Below, piece after piece: positions 2,581 through 58,743 of a stretch of 64,000 bases of DNA. Below the pieces are notes generated by a model. It saw only the letters and a list, made by a program, of their open reading frames with translations, made no database searches and was not told the origin of the DNA. This stretch comes from Curvularia clavata (Eukaryota). The stretch is from assembly GCA_023920165.1 (NCBI GenBank), contig CP089279.1, positions 2,046,001 to 2,110,000 of the forward strand, written 5' to 3'. Position 1 is the stretch's first letter, and the number at the start of each line of letters is the position of its first letter. The position numbers and the translations under genes were made by a program.

Positions 2581-4662
2581 TGCAATGACGGAGGGGTGTA
2601 TGGTACTTGGGTCGGATCAAACGAAAAGATACACAATGACGTGCATAGCTGTTAGACTGTTTGTGGGGTTGACGTTTGCGGGGATCTTTCATCGAGGTGG
2701 AGGCGAGCTTGCGCATGGACCACGTCTCCCACTATGCCGGCTTGGAGCTCCCAGCTGGAGAATTCGCACATGGCAAGAGCGTCTGCAAAGACCACGACTC
2801 TGCACAGCGTATGCAGTTTATCCTGGATTGCCGCTGTCAACCCCCTCTTGCCATGCAGCTTGGCAAGTGGACGGACTCTTATGGCCATGTCGAAATACGT
2901 CCCATGATTACGCATACATTTGTTATCGATTTTACGAGTACACTCGATTACAAATGCGTACTGATGTTTATGAGTCTACTGTCTATTCTGCTCGCAATCA
3001 TCTTCTTCTTCTTGATAAAGTGCATTGTTGAGACGCAAGAATCTCCTATAAAGGAATCGTCTGCGGAGCAAAGTGTCCATCTTGCCTTTGAATAAAGCAG
3101 AATGTTTGCAAGATTCATCTTGTCAAACAGTCTCCACCGCCTGCTGCTCCTCAGAATCCATAGTCGATGGCGACATTGTAGTGTCCACAAAATTTCATGG
3201 CGTTAACGCTTTGAAGTTGAAATTACCTGTGCATAGCATGCTGGACTAAGGCGTTTTGAGCTAGTCAGCCGAAACTTTGTGCAGCGCCGCCAGCCGTGTC
3301 CAATAGCTCTTTCACGTGCTATAAGCATCCATCTAGCAGATCTTCAAAGCTCGGTCAGACCCTGGCGAACAATACAAACGGCCCTTGTTTAGCAACGTCG
3401 GTTAGAGAAAAGCATCACATGTGCGCGTGCTCAACAGCCGAATGTATTCAGCCTTGAGGGGGAGAGCATTGACACTAGGGAGCCCTTGACCCAGTTGTAG
3501 TGGGTCCCATCGACGGTGCTGTCCGCTAGCGCAGGGTGGACGTGGACGAGGGAAACAGGGCGCTCCTCGGAGGACTGGAGTATTTTCTGTAGCCGCCGGT
3601 TGTTCAAGATCCTGCGCTTACCTAGATGCTAGCAAAGCGGTTCCCACAGAGGGGACCATTTGTGGTGATGATAATGATGATCCTCATCATTACTACACGA
3701 CGGAAACATGACTCGATTTAGTCGACCTCGGTCGCCGTGTGGCTATTTGAAGGGTCTGTTGTCGGACCGCGCCTGGTGGAAACCTGGCTCCGGGAAGCGA
3801 TGTCTGGACATTGTGGATGGCGCCGGGAGAATTGTTTCGGCGGAGATTAGGAGTGTAAATAGCAGTCGCAGACCGCTCGCTTGGAGCCAAGTCGCACGTT
3901 GTGTCAAAATTCGTCTAGTCGTAGGCAGCGGACACACTCCGACCCCCAAGCATTCTGAGTTTCAGAGTGTTAGTTTGGAAGCGTCGAGGGTAGCATAGTA
4001 ACCATGGCCTAGAAACAGCCATGTACAAGGCCGCAAATCTCCCCTTAGTGTCTTCGGGGTCTCACAAGTGCCGGGAGGTCGTCGTCCGGCGTTGAGATGG
4101 CCAGCATAGTTTATGTTTAGTATGCAGTATGCTGGCCACGGCCTGGAATGCATAGGCCCACTGGCTACGGCCAAAGGGCAAGGCGAGCAAAAGCGGCGTG
4201 GAAGGAGTGCAGCAGTGAGCAGATGCCAGACTGGCAAGGCGAAGTGGGCAAAGGCGTGCAGTCTGTTGTCTCGTATCCCCCCATATTCTACCCCGCGTGT
4301 GCAGATGCAAGCGCATTGACGAGGGACCTTTGGCTTCCCCAGGTACAGGCAGACGAAGGACTAGCGAGGGCGAGATGGGCTGGCCTAACAGGACGACAGC
4401 CGCCAGCTGACGGGAGTTTGGAGTTGCTTGTTACTTGAGACAAATCGTTGAGTGGTGGAGCGCTGGCAGCGTACCAAAGCAGCGCATGTCGCCGATGCAA
4501 GTGTGGCTTGGCGCTCACGTGCACACCTCTAGTCGCTCTAACCAAGGCCAGGCGGTGGTAATCGGTCAGGACGCAGTTCGCTGACGCGCTGCAGAGCCTG
4601 GCACACGGGTTTGACAACTGCCCACGCGCCCGCGCCGGCTCTCAGCAGCAACCACATGGACT

Positions 4663-4689
4663 ACTCGACTCGACTCGACTCGACTCGAC
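4663..4689. repeat. (ACTCG)5 pentanucleotide microsatellite
   Basis: actcgactcgactcgactcgactcgac read directly. Confidence 0.9.
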
Positions 4690-5016
4690 GCTTGTTCGCA
4701 GGTCACACTGGGCTGCCGGATCAGCGCTGCCGCGGCGACCTGAGGCTCTTTGCGAACGGTTCGGCGCGCAATCACGCTCGACTCTGGCCCAGAGGTCCGC
4801 TGTGGCGATGCTCTCTTTGAGCACTGCAGACGACTGCAAAGAAGGCTGTGGCCGTGGGGGTGCCAGGGCAGATGGCGATGGTCATATCGCTCTCTCATCA
4901 GGCCCGCATGGCTGTTATCACGGCGGTCCCACAAGAACGGTTTGTGCCAAGGCCATGCACGACCGGCAACCGACAGACAGGCAAGCTGGCAGACAACTAG
5001 CTAGCTAGCAGACAAG

Positions 5017-5044
5017 CACACAGACACACAGACACACACACACA
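5017..5044. repeat. Imperfect (CA)n microsatellite
   Basis: cacacagacacacagacacacacacaga. Confidence 0.8.
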
Positions 5045-6324
5045 GAAGAACCGCCAGCTGCTGTGGCTGTCGCCCGGGTTTCCAATGACGGCCCCCTGGC
5101 CATTTCGTGCAGCGCTGCATCATGCCATCATCCACACGAGTGCGCCGTGGTCCTCGATGTCATCGCAATATCCGTGCCCGCCGTTTGGACCTCTCGCCCT
5201 GTGCCGTTGCGTGCATCACGGCTGTAATTGCATCACCCTCGCGGCAGATCGGAGCGTGCTGCTGCTGCTCCTGTTGTTGTACATGCACACACATACATAT
5301 GCACCTTTCAGGCAGGACTGCTGCGCCATGGGCTTCTGCGGGGTCCCCCTCGTCAAGGGGAGAGCCGTTTCGTCGGACAGGCGCACTCGCATCCTTACGT
5401 ACTCGTTCACGCCCTGGCTTGGCACAAGGCTGCTGGCGTCGATGGCGACGGCGAAGGCGGCGGCGGGCTTCGATGCTTCTTCGTCTCGGTCGGCTCCGTG
5501 ATGCCGCTTGTGTGCCGTCATTCGCCCGGAAGCCTTCCCTGCCTCTGCAAGTGCTGGACCTGACGCTATCAGCAGCGCGCGCGCTGGCGGTGCAGCTCCC
5601 ATCACCCAACCAACGCCCATTGAACGCCTTTCCCTCCCCCCGGCCGCCCGTGACGTCCTCTGAGTGGCTGGTCTCCATTAGCTGCTCCGACCTTAGCGGC
5701 CGGTAGCAGATCGGGGTGCGCTGGCCCTCCCATTGGTGGACCTTCCGTGGCGTCCAGCCCTCTCCGTCGTGCAGCAGGCCACTGTCGCCATGCTCCGTTC
5801 AAGCTTCTTGCCGGGGTGCCACCATTTTTCCACGATGTAACCCGACCTGGCTGTTGCCCGACCCTGTAATTCGCCCTCCCGGTGTGGGGTGCTGGTAGGG
5901 GTTGCCACTGCCAAAGCCTTGCCCGCTGCCAGAACATGCGGGCACCAGGCCTGCTCCCTGCAGGCCACATCCTTCATGCACATCTCTCAAGATGACCACC
6001 TCTTGTCTTAATATCCCTAGCCTCTGCTATGCCGCGGCATTTTGCAGCCTTCCTCCCTTGGCATGCGAAGTTGCCCTTGTCCGCTAGGGCCCTGACCTTA
6101 TCAGACGGGGACCAAGCTTCCTTTACCCAGGCCTAGTCGAGGCCAAAATAATACTTACCCACCGTGACGCGCTTCTTCTATGCTCCATTGAGCATTGTCG
6201 CCTCCCTTCACTGTCTTGTCTATTCTATTTCCACAAACCTCGCCATACACGCTCCACATCCTGCAGATGCAACATTGCAGTGTACCCCAATAACAAACAC
6301 TCTACCTCTTTCAATCTCGTCCTT

Positions 6325-11900: not shown

Positions 11901-14039
11901 GTCGGCAATGCGGCCGGGATTTACTCCGTTGCGCCGGAGAAGGCAAACCCCGAAATGCTAGAAAATGGGTCTTTTGCGTACTATGGTAGATGCTATGATC
12001 GCTAGTTTGTAGACAGTCTGACGGTAACATTACTCCGAGTCTATGTACCGACTCCTCGCGAATCAGTTCAACAAGAAAGACGCGAACCAAGTACTTGGAG
12101 AGGCTACTGGAAGCCTGTGTATTAGTTAAAGTGGGCGATGTTACCATACTTCGTGTTTCAAAGGGAAAAAAAGAGGGCACAATTGGATCGTCATTTTAGC
12201 ATATAGAGATATGGAGCACAGACTGTATTACCTAGCATGACATTTGGGATAACGAAATACCAAGCACGCGACATTGTCCCACCAGCATGTGTAAACTTTG
12301 GCATCGGTATCCTAGTTGTTAATCCTTTAACGGTTTTCTTAGGAGACCGGGGCTACACAATTGATTGTCCTTAGTCTCTCCGAGAAAACAACGGAGGTAC
12401 ATCCTCATACAACCACAAGTCGTATTACTCGAGATGTCGAATCTTTCCGGCTACGCTAGATCATATCAGTCTCAACACACATCGATAACAAGAAAAAAGT
12501 TTGTTCATGTTGGCCTGCGCTATGGCCTGCCGTTTTGCTACAGGGCTGCTGGGTGAAGCTCAGACCTCTCGCGTAGATATTCACGGTCCAACTTGTGTGA
12601 CATTCTTATCAGCGGTCTTCCTTGTTCTGACCAGTATCCTAACTTGACCACCAGACATGTGCATCTTCCGTGGAATACCCGGATCCTCCTACATACTACT
12701 TCGTATACGTGCATTATGTGCTATAGTGACGGCGTTTAAAACCAAGCTGGACCAACCCAACGGCCTTGCTCCCCCAATCCGGGTTGCCCATTTCAGAACA
12801 ACCATGACCTTGCGCGGCTCAAACCTCTTGGTAATCCTGCAATCCTTCGTTCGCGCCCCAACCGCCGGAGCCTTCATACGCCCGTAAAACCATTGCCGCA
12901 ACATCACGCCACACCGCTTCTTGTTGTTATGGATGGTTTTAGCAGGCCCCCACCTGCATCTTTGTTCGAAAAAAATAGTCGCGGCCTTACGGGCAGCCGG
13001 CGCATTAACTTTCCGTCCGAGCAACGTCGACTCGAACCCCCCCTGGTCTCTGATCACAGCCCCTCCAGCATAGCCCGCTAACGCCCTCGTCGACCAATAC
13101 ATCCCCCCCTTCACATCATCCGCGACGCAAGGGTAAGCCTGTGCACTAGTGCACCGAATATTCGATTCGAGAGTCCACAGACATGGTACGGGCGTGAAGC
13201 CTAGTCTGTACAAGGCTGTGCAGATAACGTGCAGATATGTAGCCGCGGGAGGTAAACTGCTTGTGGCTGGCTGCCAGACACTGTGCTTGGCTGAGAGAGG
13301 AAGAGCGTCTCTATCTGTCTTTCTCGCTGATGATCGGGGCCTAGATCTCTGCGAGCTCGATGATCGACGAATATGCACATTGATTCTAGATCAACAGGTC
13401 CAAGTATCGATGTTGGGGAGCCTCGAACGAAGAAGAGCGGAACAAACGGAAGACTATCAGTCACCATTCGAATTGGTACAGGCCTTCATCAGAACTCTGT
13501 ACCACGGTGACCAGAGTTTCGGGAGCCACATCTTGGAACTGATTGGCGGACATTAAACAGCAAAGCATTCAACTACCATGACGATTTCACTAACTACTAT
13601 GCGCGCAGCAGGATACGAGCAAAAGTCCACAGTAACCCCTATGCCATCTCCACAGATAACGGCTTTGCTACTCAAACCACTCTGTTGTTCCTGCCCACTA
13701 TGTCGCCATTCTGTTAACAGACCCCGTCATCTTACTTTGCGAGTCTCACCCACACCCCCTCCTTAGAACTTGTACCTGAGCCCATACCAATACGAGTAAC
13801 TTTCCAGACCATCTTGGTGTCCGGTCCCCACTGCCATCCTCACTCTTCTCACCTTCTCAGTTTCAACCATGTCCTCCGAACACACTGTCTCGAGAACATC
13901 CTTCCTTTCTCCCCCCACACGAAACTCAGTTACACAGCCACTCAGGTCCCACAGCACACCTACACCGGCACGGTCCTGCGTCTGCATCAATAGCTTAATC
14001 GATAGCTCCCTTTATGCACTGTGACTGTGCCTGCTTTCA

Positions 14040-34690: not shown

Positions 34691-34981
34691 ATGGACTACA
34701 TACTCGACAATGTCGGCGAATGGAAGAACCGTCTCGTCAACAACTCGATCAAGTCATTCGAAGAAATGACTGCCCAGCGCTGGGTCCGCATCATCGCCAT
34801 CGTGGGAGGATACCTCCTTATTCGGCCGTATCTGCTCAATGCAGCCGCCAAGAAGCAGAAACAACAGCTGGACAGAGAAGCCGAGGAACTTGGATTGGGA
34901 AAGAGCGATGCGCCAGATGCCAATGACTTCCGTGGCAAAGGTGTCAAAGTTGCCAAGGGTGAGGTGAAGAAGAAAGAGTAG
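34691..34981 (+). CDS. PGA2: Pga2-like ER trafficking protein (DUF1531)
   Basis: WVRIIAIVGGYLLIRPYL transmembrane signature; divergent from MHF1. Confidence 0.75.
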   Translation: MDYILDNVGEWKNRLVNNSIKSFEEMTAQRWVRIIAIVGGYLLIRPYLLNAAAKKQKQQLDREAEELGLGKSDAPDANDFRGKGVKVAKGEVKKKE

Positions 34982-35238
34982 GGTTTACGAACAGAGGGAA
35001 CAGATATGGCATGGCAGAAGACGACAATGATGTGGAGGCCTTGTGCAGGAGCTTTGGATGCGAATATCATGCATCAGATGGCGTTCTATGTGTTACGTTT
35101 TGGGATACGCAACCCGTTATTGTTGATTTAATACCAGCAGCTGGAACGTTGAAATACACTTTCGCTATCTTCCATTCACCACCCCTCCTATTGCAAAAGA
35201 AAAGAAAAGAAATTCTGTCACAGCAGGGAAAAAAATGC

Positions 35239-35465
35239 AAAAAATCAATAAATCAACCCCGCCTCCCGCTTTTGTTACTCCAGCAACCGTCCGGGTTCGA
35301 ACGGCCGCCCTCCTAGCTTAGCAACCCATATCATTTCGTGTGGGACACTGAGTGGGTTGTTAGTTCCTATAAACCGTTAGCAGTCTAATGTTTGGTGTTG
35401 GGTACCCACCCCGTGTCCCGGCTAGGAGTCCACCCAACCACGGGAGTAGAGATTGATTGATCGAT
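35239..35465 (-). ncRNA. Unidentified structured small RNA gene, probably Pol III-transcribed
   Basis: TATATA ~25 nt upstream, A-box-like TGGTTGGGTGG, B box GTTCGAACC, T6/T7 runs directly after a ~24-bp 5'/3' terminal helix, 12-bp hairpin, 8-bp helix and pseudoknot; see findings. Confidence 0.7.
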
Positions 35466-35932
35466 GGAAGGAGGTAGAATATTGGAGTATATATGTGTGT
35501 TATGAATGTGTTTGGTGTGGAGGTATTTGCTGAGAGGAGTCACAACAAACGGCGGAGGGAATTGCATGTGTTTGCAAGTGAAAGTGGGCATGGCTTCACA
35601 CTGTTTGCTTGACGCCGGGGTCGGATCCGAGTAACCTATACTTCAATCCAAGCCGTTCAATTCTAGTGTACACCGCATCTTTGCTTGCGAGCTGGCCGTC
35701 TGTATAGCCCGGCAGTAGTTCCAGCTATCCCTTCAATGCCTCAAGACACGTTTTCAATGGAGCACCACTTCACATCGCCAGCATGTTAGACACTCAACAA
35801 CCTTCCGTTGGCAACCAACGCGCTACTCGCACTCCTCATTCACAACCTACCCTTCACATTTCTTGAGTCTATTATGATACCACTGTCCAGACTTCTGAGC
35901 GGATCTTGTCTTGATCACATCAGCAGCCCCCA

Positions 35933-37549
35933 ATGCCCGACAACGATCAGTATCGGCGAGCCGTGCAAGACAGAGTAGAGGAACTGCTTTCTAAACGCCA
36001 CAACACAAGTCCATCCCAGCTTCTTGTCGAAGCAATGGTTGGGGGTATGAAGCTTTATCTGAGTTACAAAGAGCAGGGGAAAGAGGAACAAAGGAAGAAA
36101 CAGGAGAGTGACGAGAAGAGGGGGCAGGGGCGACACAGGAAGGAGAGCCACATGGATGAGAAAGAGAAATACGGGCATCGGAGGCGACATAAACGCACAC
36201 ATGGTGAGAGAAGTGACGGGTCAAAGAATGGGCGCCGGCACCAGCATCGTGGCCGATCGCGTAATAGGGGCCATAGACGACAACGCGATGTTTCGCACGG
36301 CAGGCATTGTTCTAGCTCACAGGACAAGTACAATGGTGTGTCTTCGAGAGTGCATCACGACAGGTCCAGGTCCAGAGATGGCGGCTCGAATCATCGCCAA
36401 AGAGACGAAACCGACAACGTGCACGACTCGATAACAACATCCATAGAAGAGAGTGGCCTAATGAGTGGCGCAAATGGGTATCAAACCTTGGCAGAAGATC
36501 TGATTTCTCGGTCACACCCTCATTCTGTGTCGGATCAAGGAAGAGCCGTTTTGAATCCCAGGACAACTCCAGCACTTGATCAACTGGAAACAAATGCGCT
36601 CAGAATCCATTCCCGGGAGTATACTCGATCCCCTGAGCTTGACCGCGCTCCTGGGTTGAAAACCAGGAGGGTGATAAAGCCCCATAATACCCATCAGCGG
36701 GGTGGAGAGAAGAACCCACCGTCTCGCTATCAATCTTCAGCCCACCAAAGACATTCAGTTACTTGGGCTGAAAAGTCTGGTGCATCTCAATCTTCTGTGC
36801 AGCAACGAGATCCGGACGGTACCCCATTTGGCAGCCTACCCAGATACGAATCCAAAGCAGGTATAGCTCTCGGGCTCCATGATTATTTTGTGAACACTTA
36901 CAAACAGATCAAAGCTGAGCAAGACGCTGGCTACAGGACCAAAGGGTTGATCGAAAAAGTACTGGAGGGGACAAGGATGAAGTGGCCAGACGGAAAGACG
37001 AACAAAGGCAAGCCAGGTCCTGATCGAAAAGCGCCTCAGCAGTATCCAAGAGAAGGAGAGCATAGAGACAATAACGATAAAGTTAGACTCATGCACGCTC
37101 AACCAAACGCCGTTCACATTGATGATACAAGCGCTCCTCCTATGGAAGAGCCTCATTCTCCAGCGGAGCCAGAGATGAATTCTGGGACTTCATGTCCGAT
37201 CATGGCACATGCACCATTACCATTACCACGACCACTCCTAGCGAGAGATGCCAACAAGGCAAGAACTGCCCTTCTCGACTCCATCCAAGCGGGGGTCAGA
37301 CTCTGCAGGGTCGCCTCTCTGGACAAAAAGGACAAGTCTGCAAGCTCCAGCGCCGGGAAGGTCTTGTACAAAGCAACAGAACACAGCCAGGAGGTGGAAG
37401 AGCAAGAGCGAGCTCCAGCAGCTCAAGAAGCACAAGCAGAAGGCGAAACAGACCCAGGGCCGGAGCCGAATAGAGCATTCCGAGAAGACCTATTGAACGC
37501 GCTCGAGGGACGAAAGGCGAGACTAGGTGGTACCAGCCATGCTGCGTAA
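35933..37549 (+). CDS. Hypothetical, largely disordered Arg/His-rich protein with a C-terminal WH2-like actin-binding motif
   Basis: 538-codon uninterrupted ORF. ARTALLDSIQAGVRLCRV...DKS resembles the WH2 consensus RxxLLxxIxxGxxLKKV...DRS. Confidence 0.7.
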   Translation: MPDNDQYRRAVQDRVEELLSKRHNTSPSQLLVEAMVGGMKLYLSYKEQGKEEQRKKQESDEKRGQGRHRKESHMDEKEKYGHRRRHKRTHGERSDGSKNGRRHQHRGRSRNRGHRRQRDVSHGRHCSSSQDKYNGVSSRVHHDRSRSRDGGSNHRQRDETDNVHDSITTSIEESGLMSGANGYQTLAEDLISRSHPHSVSDQGRAVLNPRTTPALDQLETNALRIHSREYTRSPELDRAPGLKTRRVIKPHNTHQRGGEKNPPSRYQSSAHQRHSVTWAEKSGASQSSVQQRDPDGTPFGSLPRYESKAGIALGLHDYFVNTYKQIKAEQDAGYRTKGLIEKVLEGTRMKWPDGKTNKGKPGPDRKAPQQYPREGEHRDNNDKVRLMHAQPNAVHIDDTSAPPMEEPHSPAEPEMNSGTSCPIMAHAPLPLPRPLLARDANKARTALLDSIQAGVRLCRVASLDKKDKSASSSAGKVLYKATEHSQEVEEQERAPAAQEAQAEGETDPGPEPNRAFREDLLNALEGRKARLGGTSHAA

Positions 37550-57302: not shown

Positions 57303-58743
57303 GTTTGCAGATGGAATGCGATGGAGTAGCTGGGTAGGGTGCGATGGTGGTGGGGTTCAGACGAGGTGGTGGTGGGTGCGAGTGAGGAGGGTGGGTGAGG
57401 GTAAGTGATGTCGGCAGGAGAGATGGTGTGTGAAAGAACCAAGCCCACCCGCTCAGCCCGGATGGGAACGAGCGCAATGTAATGTGTCAGCTCGGTTTGA
57501 GGGCTCGGGCGCATGTCTGCGTCCAACTTGGCGCAACAAGACCAGCCACAGAGGCAACGGCTACGGGAGCGGCTTTGGGAGGTTGTTGCGAGCAGCTCAT
57601 CTGACCGATGGCTACGGGCCATTTACGCTGGTGACGGCATTCCTACTGAGCTTCATGCAACTCAGACTGCCGGTACAACGGTGGCTCCAGTCCGCTTCAG
57701 GCCGCATGCGCCACAATCACGTGACCTGGATGGCATCAGCCCCACCACGACGCCTCAGCTCCATGACTGAAGCCGCCGGTGCAGCAGCGCCTCTCCCTCG
57801 ACCTGGACAGCTAATTATGGCAGAAGACAAGGCCGGCCAACGACAGTCACGTGAGCGCACCCTTTGGTAGTTTCAGAGAGCACAGCCTTGTGTTGCTGCC
57901 GCTGCATGGGAAAGCCGGCACCCGAGCCGCGACTCAGCCTCAGGGCATACGACATGACGCTGCTGGCGTGGCAACAGGAACGGAATACGAACAGGGCAGC
58001 GGCAGGGCGGCGCGGGCGATGACGAGGTCATTTTGCTTGTGTGCCAAAAGCAGCGCACTAAGCGGCGCAGGTTGCGCCGAGTAAAGACAAAAGCTTGGGA
58101 AGCTTTTTGCATGCCCTGGGGCGCCATCACCGTCACGACGCCCGGCGCCTCCCTCAGCGACGACGGCTTCGAGACGCTCTGTGCAGCAGGACGCTGGCTG
58201 GTGCGCAGCGGCCTGCCTATCAAAGCGCCGCAGGTGGAGTGCCATAGAGGGCGCCAAAGCCCGCACACGCCTGGGCTGGCCGTGGGGCCTCCCTGATCGC
58301 CAAGCCGCGCGTACTAGACCAAGTCTTGAATCTCCGGGGCGCCGCTACTTGCTTGTCGCTCGCCTTCAGGAGTCTCGTCTTCGCAACCACCGCCCCTCTG
58401 CTGCTGATCTCGCTCCGTCTCCCATTTCCTTTTTGCTCTGTGAACAACGCTCGCTGAACCATCCGTCTCCGCACCCCTACCCAAGCGCCACCTCCCGCCC
58501 GTGTCCTCCTTGACGCCCTGCGCTTGCTCTCCCTGAACCCGTCGTTCGTTCCATCCTCAACGCCAACCCAGCCAGCGCCCGTCCTTCTGCGATACCCCAC
58601 GTCCCTCTGATCTTGGCTCCATCTTGGCCGTATTGGCATCACTGCACGCCGTCTTCTATCCTCAAGCCTGGTGCTTGATCTCCTTCGGCTGTGTCCGCTA
58701 AGCGACTGCGACACAAAGTCGCATCGTCTTTCCACTACTTAAT

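Follow-up and report, generated by a model that had tools for sequence, protein, structure and literature searches.

A strand-specific structured RNA unit with Pol III-type signals, predicted in a filamentous ascomycete, belongs to a dispersed low-copy family

The unit and its predicted fold

The stretch of DNA analysed here, 64,000 nucleotides in all and referred to as the window, contains on its minus strand a predicted RNA unit of approximately 225 nt (35239-35465; predicted ends). This unit combines a strong, strand-biased folding signal with a layout of Pol III-type signals, is matched by no Rfam or tRNA model, and shares its centre with copies dispersed in the genomes of close relatives. 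The explanation favoured here, to which we give a somewhat better than even chance, is that a low-copy family of tRNA-gene-derived Pol III units is dispersed in the genome of a filamentous ascomycete and that the locus belongs to it. The locus would encode a three-way-junction RNA, a stable La-type, oligo-U-ended structured small RNA acting via its conserved core.

The unit lies between PGA2, an identification borne out by Pfam (6.2e-17), and a gene that the preliminary description of this DNA had called a WH2 gene. The latter encodes a 538-aa protein without a Pfam family, so that name is unconfirmed. The intervening gap had been taken to be free of ORFs; it is overlapped by ORFs of 101 aa (plus strand) and 68 aa (minus strand), for neither of which a Pfam family was found. 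When the minus strand was read, every motif and every helix of the earlier description was present at its position. The features are as follows, with the basis of each in parentheses.

35488-35493, minus strand: TATA-like box TATATA, 28 nt 5′ of the predicted start at 35465 (sequence; its co-occurrence with a B box and T-run is unique in the window)
35239-35465, minus strand: predicted Pol III transcript of about 225 nt (begins where the closing helix does, runs to the first T-run; fold)
35440-35465, minus strand: closing helix, 5′ strand, 6 + 10 + 7 bp (pair probabilities 0.92-0.99; duplex energy)
35244-35269, minus strand: closing helix, 3′ strand, ending at the T-run (duplex energy; MFE)
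35430-35440, minus strand: A-box-like TGGTTGGGTGG in the 11-nt junction strand (sequence)
35421-35428, minus strand: helix A, 5′ strand CUCCUAGC, partner 35310-35317 (pair probability 0.66)
35342-35419, minus strand: long arm, made up of helix B, helix C and the apical hairpin (probabilities 0.88-1.00)
35413-35419 with 35342-35348, minus strand: helix B (part of the long arm)
35404-35411 with 35350-35357, minus strand: helix C (part of the long arm)
35370-35387, minus strand: apical hairpin, loop CUAA (tip of the long arm)
35310-35341, minus strand: single-stranded linker ACACGAAAUGAUAUGGGUUGCUAA, then the 3′ strand of helix A (MFE; weak tRNA form; copy comparison)
35282-35309, minus strand: 12-bp hairpin with four G.U pairs, loop AACC and the B box inside (pair probability 0.99)
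35294-35302, minus strand: B box GTTCGAACC (sequence)
35266-35390, minus strand: family-conserved core (alignment at 80% or more to other contigs in relatives' genomes; depth profile)
35229-35244, minus strand: terminator, T6 (35239-35244), GCA and T7 (35229-35235) (sequence; T-runs in paralogue 3′ arms)

The minus strand of 35239-35465 has an MFE of about -96.3 to -96.8 kcal/mol (z = -5.15), and none of 200 shuffled sequences folded as well. For the plus strand of the unit, z was -1.08 and 28 of 200 shuffles were as good. In a scan of the whole 64 kb with 230-nt sliding windows on both strands, the one starting at 35241 (minus strand) was the top outlier among 3190, with a residual of -4.11 sd after regression on base composition. 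The MFE structure comprises 73 pairs, 12 of them G.U, and contains no A.C 1x1 mismatch. Mirrored on the plus strand, it loses 12 pairs and reaches -50.8, the plus strand's own MFE being -66.3. The claim that the element is structured in a strand-specific manner and has a layout of the Pol III type is supported in silico.

The closing-arm duplex has an energy of -30.2 kcal/mol, the fifth best of the 25,512 arm pairs with this geometry that the window contains, and the end of the closing helix coincides exactly with the start of the T-run. Strong arm duplexes elsewhere in the window, at 4856 and 5251 (plus strand), are not repeats. Helix pair probabilities across the unit range from 0.66 to 1.00. 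The inner 5 bp of helix A form an anticodon-stem-like CUAGC/GCUAG, and an anticodon-loop-like heptamer, UUGCUAA, is situated in 35310-35341. Neither hairpin loop of the unit (CUAA and AACC) belongs to the stable GNRA or UNCG types, which speaks against the favoured reading.

A pseudoknotted core had also been proposed. The strands of both knots are present, but the knots are not needed for the fold and one of the two is disfavoured: for CAACCCA/UGGGUUG there is a better, nested competitor, the helix GGGUGGGU/ACCCACUC, and freeing the strands of the knot costs 13.2 kcal/mol while the knot helix returns 9.3. In the case of GUUGGGU/ACCCAAC, the strands are free in the MFE structure, so that this second pairing is possible in the model.

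Pol III-type signals and relation to tRNA genes

The B-box word GTTCGANNC by itself occurs in the window at chance frequency (8 found, 7.8 expected). The combination of a B box, a run of five or more T within 100 nt and TATAWA within 260 nt upstream is found only once in the window, at the unit; 0.04 occurrences are expected, and at least one was reached in 7 of 200 shuffles. The A-box consensus is TRGCNNAGTGG, which the A-box-like sequence matches at nine of 11 positions, two N being counted as matches. This box begins 26 nt past the predicted start, and some 130 nt separate it from the B box; both distances are usually shorter in tRNA genes, a point against the favoured reading. A second B box with a T-run, at 13037 on the minus strand, bears no resemblance to the unit.

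ARAGORN found no tRNA gene in the window, whether or not an intron in the anticodon loop was allowed, and the tRNA model of Rfam gave none either, in agreement with the earlier statement that the unit has no canonical cloverleaf. At 80% of its threshold, ARAGORN reports within the unit a weak tRNA-Ser(GCU)-like cloverleaf, with a perfect 5-bp anticodon stem (CUAGC/GCUAG), the loop UUGCUAA and an insert of 96 nt; its acceptor pairs at only four of seven positions and its T stem is poor. These remnants of an anticodon arm favour the suggestion, made previously with reserve, that the unit is tRNA-derived. A tRNA gene split by mRNA-type introns (GT/GC-AG) was rejected as a candidate: removal of one or two introns (482 combinations) or of one to three (6108), followed by ARAGORN at default settings with and without the anticodon-loop intron, restored no tRNA.

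In common with tRNA genes, whose type 2 Pol III promoter is accompanied in fungi by a TATA element, the unit has an internal A-box-like sequence and B box, an oligo-T terminator and a TATA-like box near -30. It also keeps anticodon stem-loop remnants (CUAGC / UUGCUAA / GCUAG) and a 7-bp acceptor-like inner helix, CUCCCGU/GCGGGAG. Unlike a tRNA, it lacks a D stem, and its T stem is unpaired in the T-loop register. The hairpin is separated from the acceptor-like strand by 12 nt, the anticodon arm carries the 96-nt insert, and a 16-bp extension continues past the acceptor-like helix.

Comparison with catalogued RNA families

The preliminary description had recognised no known RNA family in the unit, and the Rfam check bears this out: no match anywhere in the window reached the gathering threshold, and none of 4227 families matched 35225-35475 at E values up to 10. 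The sole match in 35000-35700, 24 nt of ctRNA (E = 1.1), falls outside the unit and is due to chance. No description of such a family was found in the literature searched (Repbase, Dfam and supplements were outside its scope), and three strings from the core, together with a U-for-T copy of one of them, were absent from the paper texts searched.

It is scarcely probable that the unit is a housekeeping RNA of a known type, whether RNase P, MRP, SRP, Y or vault RNA, that has diverged past the Rfam models. A terminal helix formed from both ends, the Pol III layout and the possible long-range pairings would suit such an RNA. Against it, in addition to the Rfam result, are the dozen or so diverged copies per genome, unlike RNase P, MRP and SRP RNA genes, which are single-copy, and the order of the helices, which in the MFE structure does not follow the P1-P2-P3-P4 plan of the consensus structures. 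In YrlA-type bacterial Y RNAs, a tRNA-like module is joined to a long stem made from both ends, which binds Ro60; their general shape resembles that of the RNA predicted here. The terminal stem is conserved in Y RNAs, however, whereas it is the variable part of this family, and the unit has no Rfam Y RNA match. YrlA-type RNAs are described as noncoding RNAs that mimic tRNA (PMC4201824).

A dispersed family of copies

The unit had been presented as a lone gene. It is apparent from the depth and contigs of sequencing runs that it is not single-copy, since its central part lies on many contigs of relatives. In X3, a DNA run from a near-identical relative, the central 100-125 nt or so (35266-35390) are found on at least seven other long contigs; the matches listed include seven such contigs of 6-130 kb, which align within 35266-35389, and 13 of the 15 matching pieces lie only partly on the stretch compared. 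The orthologous contig of X3 is 43.7 kb long with a depth of 122; coverage rises to 1428.8 over 35272-35315 and to 866 over 35316-35359. The 12-bp hairpin is thus the most widely common part of the family, at approximately 11.7-fold (about 12-fold) depth. Paralogue pieces also occur in runs X14 (three of four pieces) and X15. Judged from these runs of close relatives, rather than from the window's own assembly, the family would number about a dozen copies per genome. Within the 64-kb window itself, no second copy was found with blastn (word size 7) or with a 23-mer allowing three mismatches.

Core identity among the dispersed copies is 80-95%. Unlike the centre, the first 60 nt or so of the unit and the last 25 or so give no alignment to paralogues that reaches 80%; the arms that flank the core differ between copies, and the linker in 35310-35341 bears indels and substitutions that tell the paralogues apart. 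Six distinct paralogue 3′ arms, seen at loose contig ends, extend 30 nt past the core. On the RNA strand, a run of at least five T is present in all six of these readable arms. In five of them 22-25 nt separate the core from the start of this run, and in the sixth 15 nt, the distance in the window's unit being 23 nt. An outer motif of the UUGAUU type is kept in four of the six arms, while the inner part differs; on the favoured reading, the arms of each paralogue would pair with one another. Since the centre is kept, the inner closing arms differ, and arm length and T-run are retained, the pattern reads, on comparison of the copies, as that of a gene family under constraint, in the manner of tRNA isoacceptors, and not as that of retroposed copies.

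At 35250, the window has U and the orthologues of all four runs have G, so that the sole C.U mismatch of the outer helix becomes a C-G pair. In the X14 orthologue, a change from G to C at 35265 breaks a pair of the closing helix, and the four differences listed include no compensation. C replaces U at 35301 at approximately 43% of core depth, on five X3 contigs, which gives a C.A mismatch in the hairpin; no change in the partner is listed. What is conserved there may be the promoter in the DNA and not the fold of the RNA. The changes at 35265 and 35301 both weigh against the favoured reading.

When metagenomes were scanned with a degenerate pattern of 20 nt from the core, 118 loci were obtained, none matching beyond about 32 nt around the pattern; these are chance or bacterial sequence. 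The same search gave no locus in genome contigs and one chance match in viral contigs, likewise confined to about 32 nt. None of the collections searched yielded a relative.

Comparison with mobile elements

Dispersed copies flanked by target-site duplications had been named beforehand as the mark of a SINE. Dispersed copies were indeed found, in the relatives' runs, which by that criterion points in the direction of a SINE, but no duplication was seen at the window's copy. There, no flanking direct repeat of at least 6 bp (or at least 9 bp with one mismatch) was detected, nor was a 5-bp target-site duplication at any boundary pair within 35195-35254 and 35440-35504, nor were TG..CA ends or a TA duplication. 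The 3′ end of the unit consists of a helix strand and then its own T-run, without a poly(A), A-rich or LINE-like tail. The ends of a SINE are its promoter head and a tail recognised by reverse transcriptase; neither a conserved 5′ tRNA-like head nor a shared 3′ tail is present in this family. Having neither a target-site duplication nor a tail, and being most diverged at its ends, the locus does not qualify as a SINE, MITE or solo LTR of the classical kind.

A broader reading is unlikely, although it carries appreciable weight: that this is a tRNA-related SINE-like or other mobile repeat, spread by retroposition or another route, the copies of which are decaying and give RNA without a cellular function. 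The presence of copies on many contigs at the above core identity and an A/B-box promoter with tRNA-Ser-like remnants are in keeping with it, and the C.A mismatch in the hairpin and the uncompensated X14 change fit neutral drift. There is also a precedent: Aspergillus fumigatus has tRNA-related SINEs, low in copy number and 140-493 bp long, in which features of Pol III promoters are described (PMC5063351). Of these, AfuSINE2 is like the unit in its tRNA-related Pol III promoter, tRNA-unrelated part, size range, low copy number and dispersal; its copies carry target-site duplications of 4-14 bp (PMC5063351). The unit differs from AfuSINE2 in that no duplication was found, its ends are complementary and variable, its centre is conserved and it has its own terminator. 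Retention of the T-run in all six arms and the complementarity of the ends over 23 bp, for which a SINE has no need, also argue against a SINE-like origin, as do the missing direct repeat, the missing tail and the divergence of both ends around a kept centre.

Solo LTRs have TG..CA ends. It is very improbable that the unit is only a DNA-level inverted repeat, be it a MITE or a solo LTR from a TRIM that bears a tRNA, or that its structure arose by chance in the 3′ UTR of PGA2 or the neighbour's promoter. A 23-bp terminal inverted repeat with a multicopy core would be expected of such a repeat, and contigs from an RNA library cross the borders of the unit. The fold is one-sided, however, with 12 G.U pairs becoming C.A on the plus strand, so that the two strands are not alike. 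In a MITE the terminal inverted repeats are conserved; in this family it is they that vary, and no TA or longer (5 bp or more) duplication accompanies them. Fungal TRIMs with tRNA-like LTRs do exist. Those named Helenus (TRIMp3) are non-autonomous LTR retrotransposons, and their LTRs occur paired or solo with 5-bp duplications (PMC10886601). Helenus is reported only from Pucciniales and a few Agaricomycetes, whereas the unit resides in an ascomycete and has neither the 5-bp duplication nor the TG..CA ends of a Helenus solo LTR.

RNA-library coverage and microRNA-like RNAs

The sole run recorded as RNA is X19 (an RNA origin of X15 is only a guess). Three low-depth contigs of X19, for which strand is not given, cover 34700-34888, 35107-35266 and 35282-35449. 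The second reaches 120 nt past the terminator, and depth is similarly low there and over the unit (2.5-4.3). As coverage is found beyond the terminator as well, these contigs may be DNA carry-over or the 3′ UTR of PGA2 mRNA, from the opposite strand.

It is improbable that the unit is a Pol III-made precursor of microRNA-like small RNAs, in which the closing helix or long arm would be diced, the tRNA-like core would recruit processing enzymes, and the variable arms would give a different small RNA from each paralogue. In Neurospora crassa, Pol III makes the stem-loop precursors of milR-1 to milR-4; TATA-like elements, poly-T and putative A and B boxes are indicated in the sequences of these loci, and RNase Z cuts milR-4 from a tRNA-containing transcript (PMC3547838). 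The unit has the same layout, being an intergenic stem-loop with a TATA-like box, A- and B-like boxes, a T-run and, as in the case of milR-4, a tRNA link. Its near-perfect 23-bp end duplex is of suitable length, and variable arms around a kept core fit a scaffold-plus-guide design. The outer part of the arm is semi-conserved, however, and not free to vary. The unit also differs from the milR loci in belonging to a multicopy family with a conserved non-helical core; the likeness is one of layout, and nothing ties the sequence of the unit to the Neurospora loci. Moreover, most milRNA loci of fungi are specific to a lineage and show poor conservation (PMC9757828).

Discussion

Under the favoured reading, that of a tRNA-derived Pol III gene family, the gene would be laid out with a TATA-like box at -28, an internal A-box-like sequence and consensus B box, and a T6/T7 terminator right after the last base pair. 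The RNA of about 225 nt would form a three-way junction closed by a 23-bp helix of its 5′ and 3′ ends. Its long arm, three helices stacked on one another, would be a relic of the anticodon arm swollen by the insert of about 96 nt. The 12-bp G.U-rich hairpin that carries the B box would abut helix A, and in the model the two probably stack, as no linker lies between them. The conserved core would be the acting part, for example as a tRNA-elbow-like protein-binding scaffold, and the closing helix would mainly protect the RNA ends.

A bolder version of this proposal must be considered rather doubtful. It holds that these units are an undescribed class of Pol III small-RNA genes in filamentous ascomycetes, built on gutted tRNA genes, in which a protein that processes or binds the RNA takes hold of the conserved tRNA-elbow-like core. 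The closing helix, specific to each paralogue, would then be programmable, each copy yielding or presenting a different guide or microRNA-like sequence of about 22 nt.

The RNAs that Pol III makes in fungi are taken to be few in kind, namely tRNAs, 5S, U6, SRP, RNase P and some more. If real, a family of about a dozen structured 225-nt genes with a conserved core would be a new kind among them, and it may bear on the Pol III origin of fungal microRNA-like RNAs. If the family is instead a decaying tRNA-derived repeat, the finding is an ordinary one. For annotation, it is relevant that such units sit among ordinary genes, escape tRNA finders and Rfam, and can be confused with SINEs or with sequence of promoters or UTRs. 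Helenus is likewise a source, in fungal genomes, of dispersed tRNA-like Pol III-promoter sequences that tRNA finders misjudge (PMC10886601).

Putative gene layout

The element at 35239-35465 on the minus strand, a putative Pol III-type RNA gene (the unit) with a predicted transcript of approximately 225 nt, is real and strand-specific, and is a member of a dispersed, tRNA-derived family of Pol III type that has no name in the catalogues searched. All of the motifs and helices reported in the preliminary description were located as it placed them when the minus strand was read.

Features of the unit and its neighbour
35493-35488, minus strand, TATA-like box TATATA (from sequence)
35440-35430, minus strand, A-box-like TGGTTGGGTGG (from sequence)
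35302-35294, minus strand, B box GTTCGAACC (from sequence)
35244-35239 (T6) and 35235-35229 (T7), minus strand, terminator (from sequence)
34691-34981, plus strand, PGA2 gene (from Pfam)

The B-box word alone occurs in the window at chance level (8 found, 7.8 expected). Its combination with a T-run of at least 5 within 100 nt and TATAWA no more than 260 nt upstream was found once, at the unit (expected 0.04), and was reached once in 7 of 200 shuffles. The sole other B-box-like word with a T-run (GTTCGAGTC at 13037, within 12960-13045, minus strand, T-run 53 nt downstream) had no TATA box, tRNA call or likeness to the unit. The identity of PGA2 as upstream neighbour was borne out by Pfam (6.2e-17). 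The supposed WH2 gene proved to be a 538-aa neighbour without any Pfam family, and the gap described as ORF-less contains two ORFs overlapping the unit (101 aa, plus strand; 68 aa, minus strand), for neither of which Pfam gave a family.

Folding of the minus strand

It is apparent that the fold of the unit is far from chance. Region 35229-35470 (minus) folds at -96.8 kcal/mol (z -5.15), equalled by none of 200 dinucleotide shuffles; its plus strand gave a z of -1.08, with 28 of 200 shuffles as good. When the whole window was scanned in 230-nt segments on both strands, with energy regressed on base composition, the segment starting at 35241 (minus) was the top outlier among 3190 (-4.11 sd). The minimum free energy (MFE) structure of 35239-35465 (minus) contains 73 pairs (12 G.U) and two 1x1 mismatches, G.A and C.U, with no A.C; mirrored onto the plus strand, it loses 12 pairs. 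Pair probabilities of the eight helices were 0.66-1.00. Pairing between the first 26 nt and the last 26 gives -30.2 kcal/mol, a value that ranked fifth among 25,512 arm pairs with matching geometry in the window.

The runner-up folder after composition correction, 58001-58230 (minus; -110.4 kcal/mol, z -3.40, 0 of 200 shuffles, GC 0.65), is probably coding sequence, since minus-strand ORFs (57940-58245 and 58220-58639) cover it. At 4856, 5251, 55226 and 40006 (plus), arms separated by 170 nt form duplexes of -31 to -34.5 kcal/mol, which match or exceed the closing helix of the unit in strength; a search of 4600-5700, around the first two, gave no repeat.

The pseudoknot CAACCCA/UGGGUUG, previously proposed for the core, uses the same C-strand as the nested helix GGGUGGGU/ACCCACUC. 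Freeing its strands costs 13.2 kcal/mol, of which the knot helix gives back 9.3; the knot is therefore an alternative to that helix and does not add to it. The pairing GUUGGGU/ACCCAAC (-9.4), with both strands free in the MFE structure, is conceivable, and would need to reach approximately 23 bp up the long arm (35342-35419).

A multicopy family in relatives

No second copy of the unit was found within the window. Public sequencing runs of relatives were compared over 34700-36000. Run X3 (DNA) is a near-identical relative, because one 43.7-kb contig covers the full region at depth 122 and shows 4 differences over its 1301 nt. Its depth is 154.9 at 35228-35271, 1428.8 at 35272-35315, 866 at 35316-35359 and 276.5 at 35360-35403, and then 122 again. 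Fifteen X3 pieces matched this region, 13 of them only in part, and at least seven further contigs (6.4-130 kb) showed alignments confined to 35266-35389, with 1-16 mismatches and 0-7 gaps. Paralogue pieces were likewise present in X14 (3 of 4 pieces) and X15 (three contig records). On these depths and contigs, about a dozen loci per genome share a common central core in the relatives' runs.

Similarity among the paralogues stops sharply at 35266-35273, the exact start of the closing helix's 3′ strand. Six distinct 3′ continuations were long enough to judge in loose ends of 30 nt. All six carry a T-run of at least 5 on the RNA strand, beginning 22-25 nt past the core in five of them but 15 nt past it in the sixth (23 nt in the window), and all are G+U-rich, as would be expected if they formed the 3′ strand of a helix containing G.U pairs. 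Four keep a UUGAUU-type motif beside the T-run; the 7-14 nt adjacent to the core differ. The variable arms of each paralogue are predicted to pair with one another. Indels and substitutions cluster at 35330-35340 and 35356-35373, the linker and loop regions of the model.

G at 35250, in all four runs, closes the outer helix's only C.U mismatch and fits the closing helix, although there is no compensatory pair of changes. Two changes count against the structured-RNA reading. In the X14 orthologue, position 35265 of that helix is altered with no compensating change. C at 35301, carried by five X3 contigs that account for approximately 43% of the depth over the core, produces a C.A mismatch in the B-box hairpin (35282-35309); no change at its partner, 35290, is listed in the X3 contigs.

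Two X15 contigs, 10-16% diverged from the window over the 3′ part of PGA2 (34838-35135; one has 31 differences across 298 nt, the other 28 across 178 nt), represent more distant relatives and end before the unit.

Mobile element or gene family

In a SINE the promoter head has to be preserved, together with the tail that reverse transcriptase uses, and in a MITE the terminal repeats. In the unit these ends (promoter head, tail, terminal repeats) are the most diverged parts; what is conserved is the centre, and every copy carries a terminator of its own at a constant distance. The pattern is for these reasons closer to that of a small family of genes, for example tRNA isoacceptors, than to that of copies made by retroposition. 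Searches around this copy found neither flanking direct repeats (6 bp or more) nor an A-rich tail; the boundary pairs tried showed no 5-bp repeat, and TG..CA ends accompanied by a 4-bp repeat were likewise absent. That the unit is a SINE-like element is rather unlikely, but the reading is retained because Aspergillus has tRNA-related SINEs of low copy number (PMC5063351) and the hairpin mismatches look neutral.

Relationship to tRNA and other RNAs

Across the whole window Rfam 15 gave no match at gathering score, nor was there one at E up to 10 in 35225-35475; in 35000-35700 the sole match at E up to 10 was a 24-nt chance likeness to ctRNA outside the unit. Of the known classes compared, tRNAs, tRNA-related SINEs, MITEs, Helenus solo LTRs and the Y, vault, RNase P, MRP and SRP RNAs each differ from the unit in at least one defining feature; with Pol III milRNA precursors the unit shares Pol III signals and a stem-loop. 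No description of such a family was found in the literature, Repbase and Dfam lying outside the search.

ARAGORN called no tRNA in the window, by default or with anticodon-loop introns allowed. At 80% of threshold it returned a weak tRNA-Ser(GCU)-like cloverleaf (35447-35282) whose 5-bp anticodon stem, CUAGC/GCUAG, is fully paired and whose loop, UUGCUAA, has the textbook form; this supports descent of the unit from a tRNA gene. A working tRNA was rejected on the weak cloverleaf, in which only 4 of 7 acceptor pairs form, the T stem is poor and a 96-nt insert occupies a non-canonical place. CUAAC branch-site-like words are present; a tRNA split by mRNA-type introns was likewise rejected, as ARAGORN still found none once GT/GC-AG introns had been taken out in every combination of up to three (482 and 6108 sets). 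Two minus-strand UGCUAA words, ACUGCUAAC in 35370-35390 and GGUUGCUAAGC in 35316-35326, each resemble a tRNA-Ser(GCU) anticodon loop as well as a branch site of fungal introns, and the loose end of one paralogue retains the first.

Proposed RNA

Pol III would start approximately 28 nt past the TATA-like box and stop in T6, and the RNA would close on itself through a 6+10+7-bp helix. Helix A (35421-35428 with 35310-35317) and the B-box hairpin would abut without a linker, probably stacked, at a junction lined by the 11-nt A-box strand and a 12-nt GGAGUAACAAAA strand. The reading adopted here is a stable, oligo-U-ended structured RNA predicted to act through its core. As a sub-case, the unit might be a microRNA-like precursor, a quite improbable reading modelled on the Neurospora milR loci, described in PMC3547838 as Pol III genes whose sequences carry TATA-like elements, putative A and B boxes and poly-T.

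The closest known systems are tRNA genes, alike in promoter and in the unit's tRNA remnants, fungal tRNA-related SINEs, those milR loci, bacterial tRNA-mimicking Y RNAs (PMC4201824) and Helenus TRIMs (PMC10886601).

X19, the sole run recorded as RNA, gave contigs at 35282-35449 and 35107-35266 (depth 2.5-4.3), the latter extending 120 nt beyond the terminator. In X15, which may be an RNA run, coverage is continuous over 34700-35770 and passes uninterrupted through the borders of the unit. None of these contigs carries strand information, and they may derive from DNA or from the PGA2 3′ UTR of the opposite strand. RNA-type contigs run from the PGA2 coding region through DNA antisense to the unit, to about 35450, and the PGA2 3′ UTR may therefore overlap the unit on the opposite strand.
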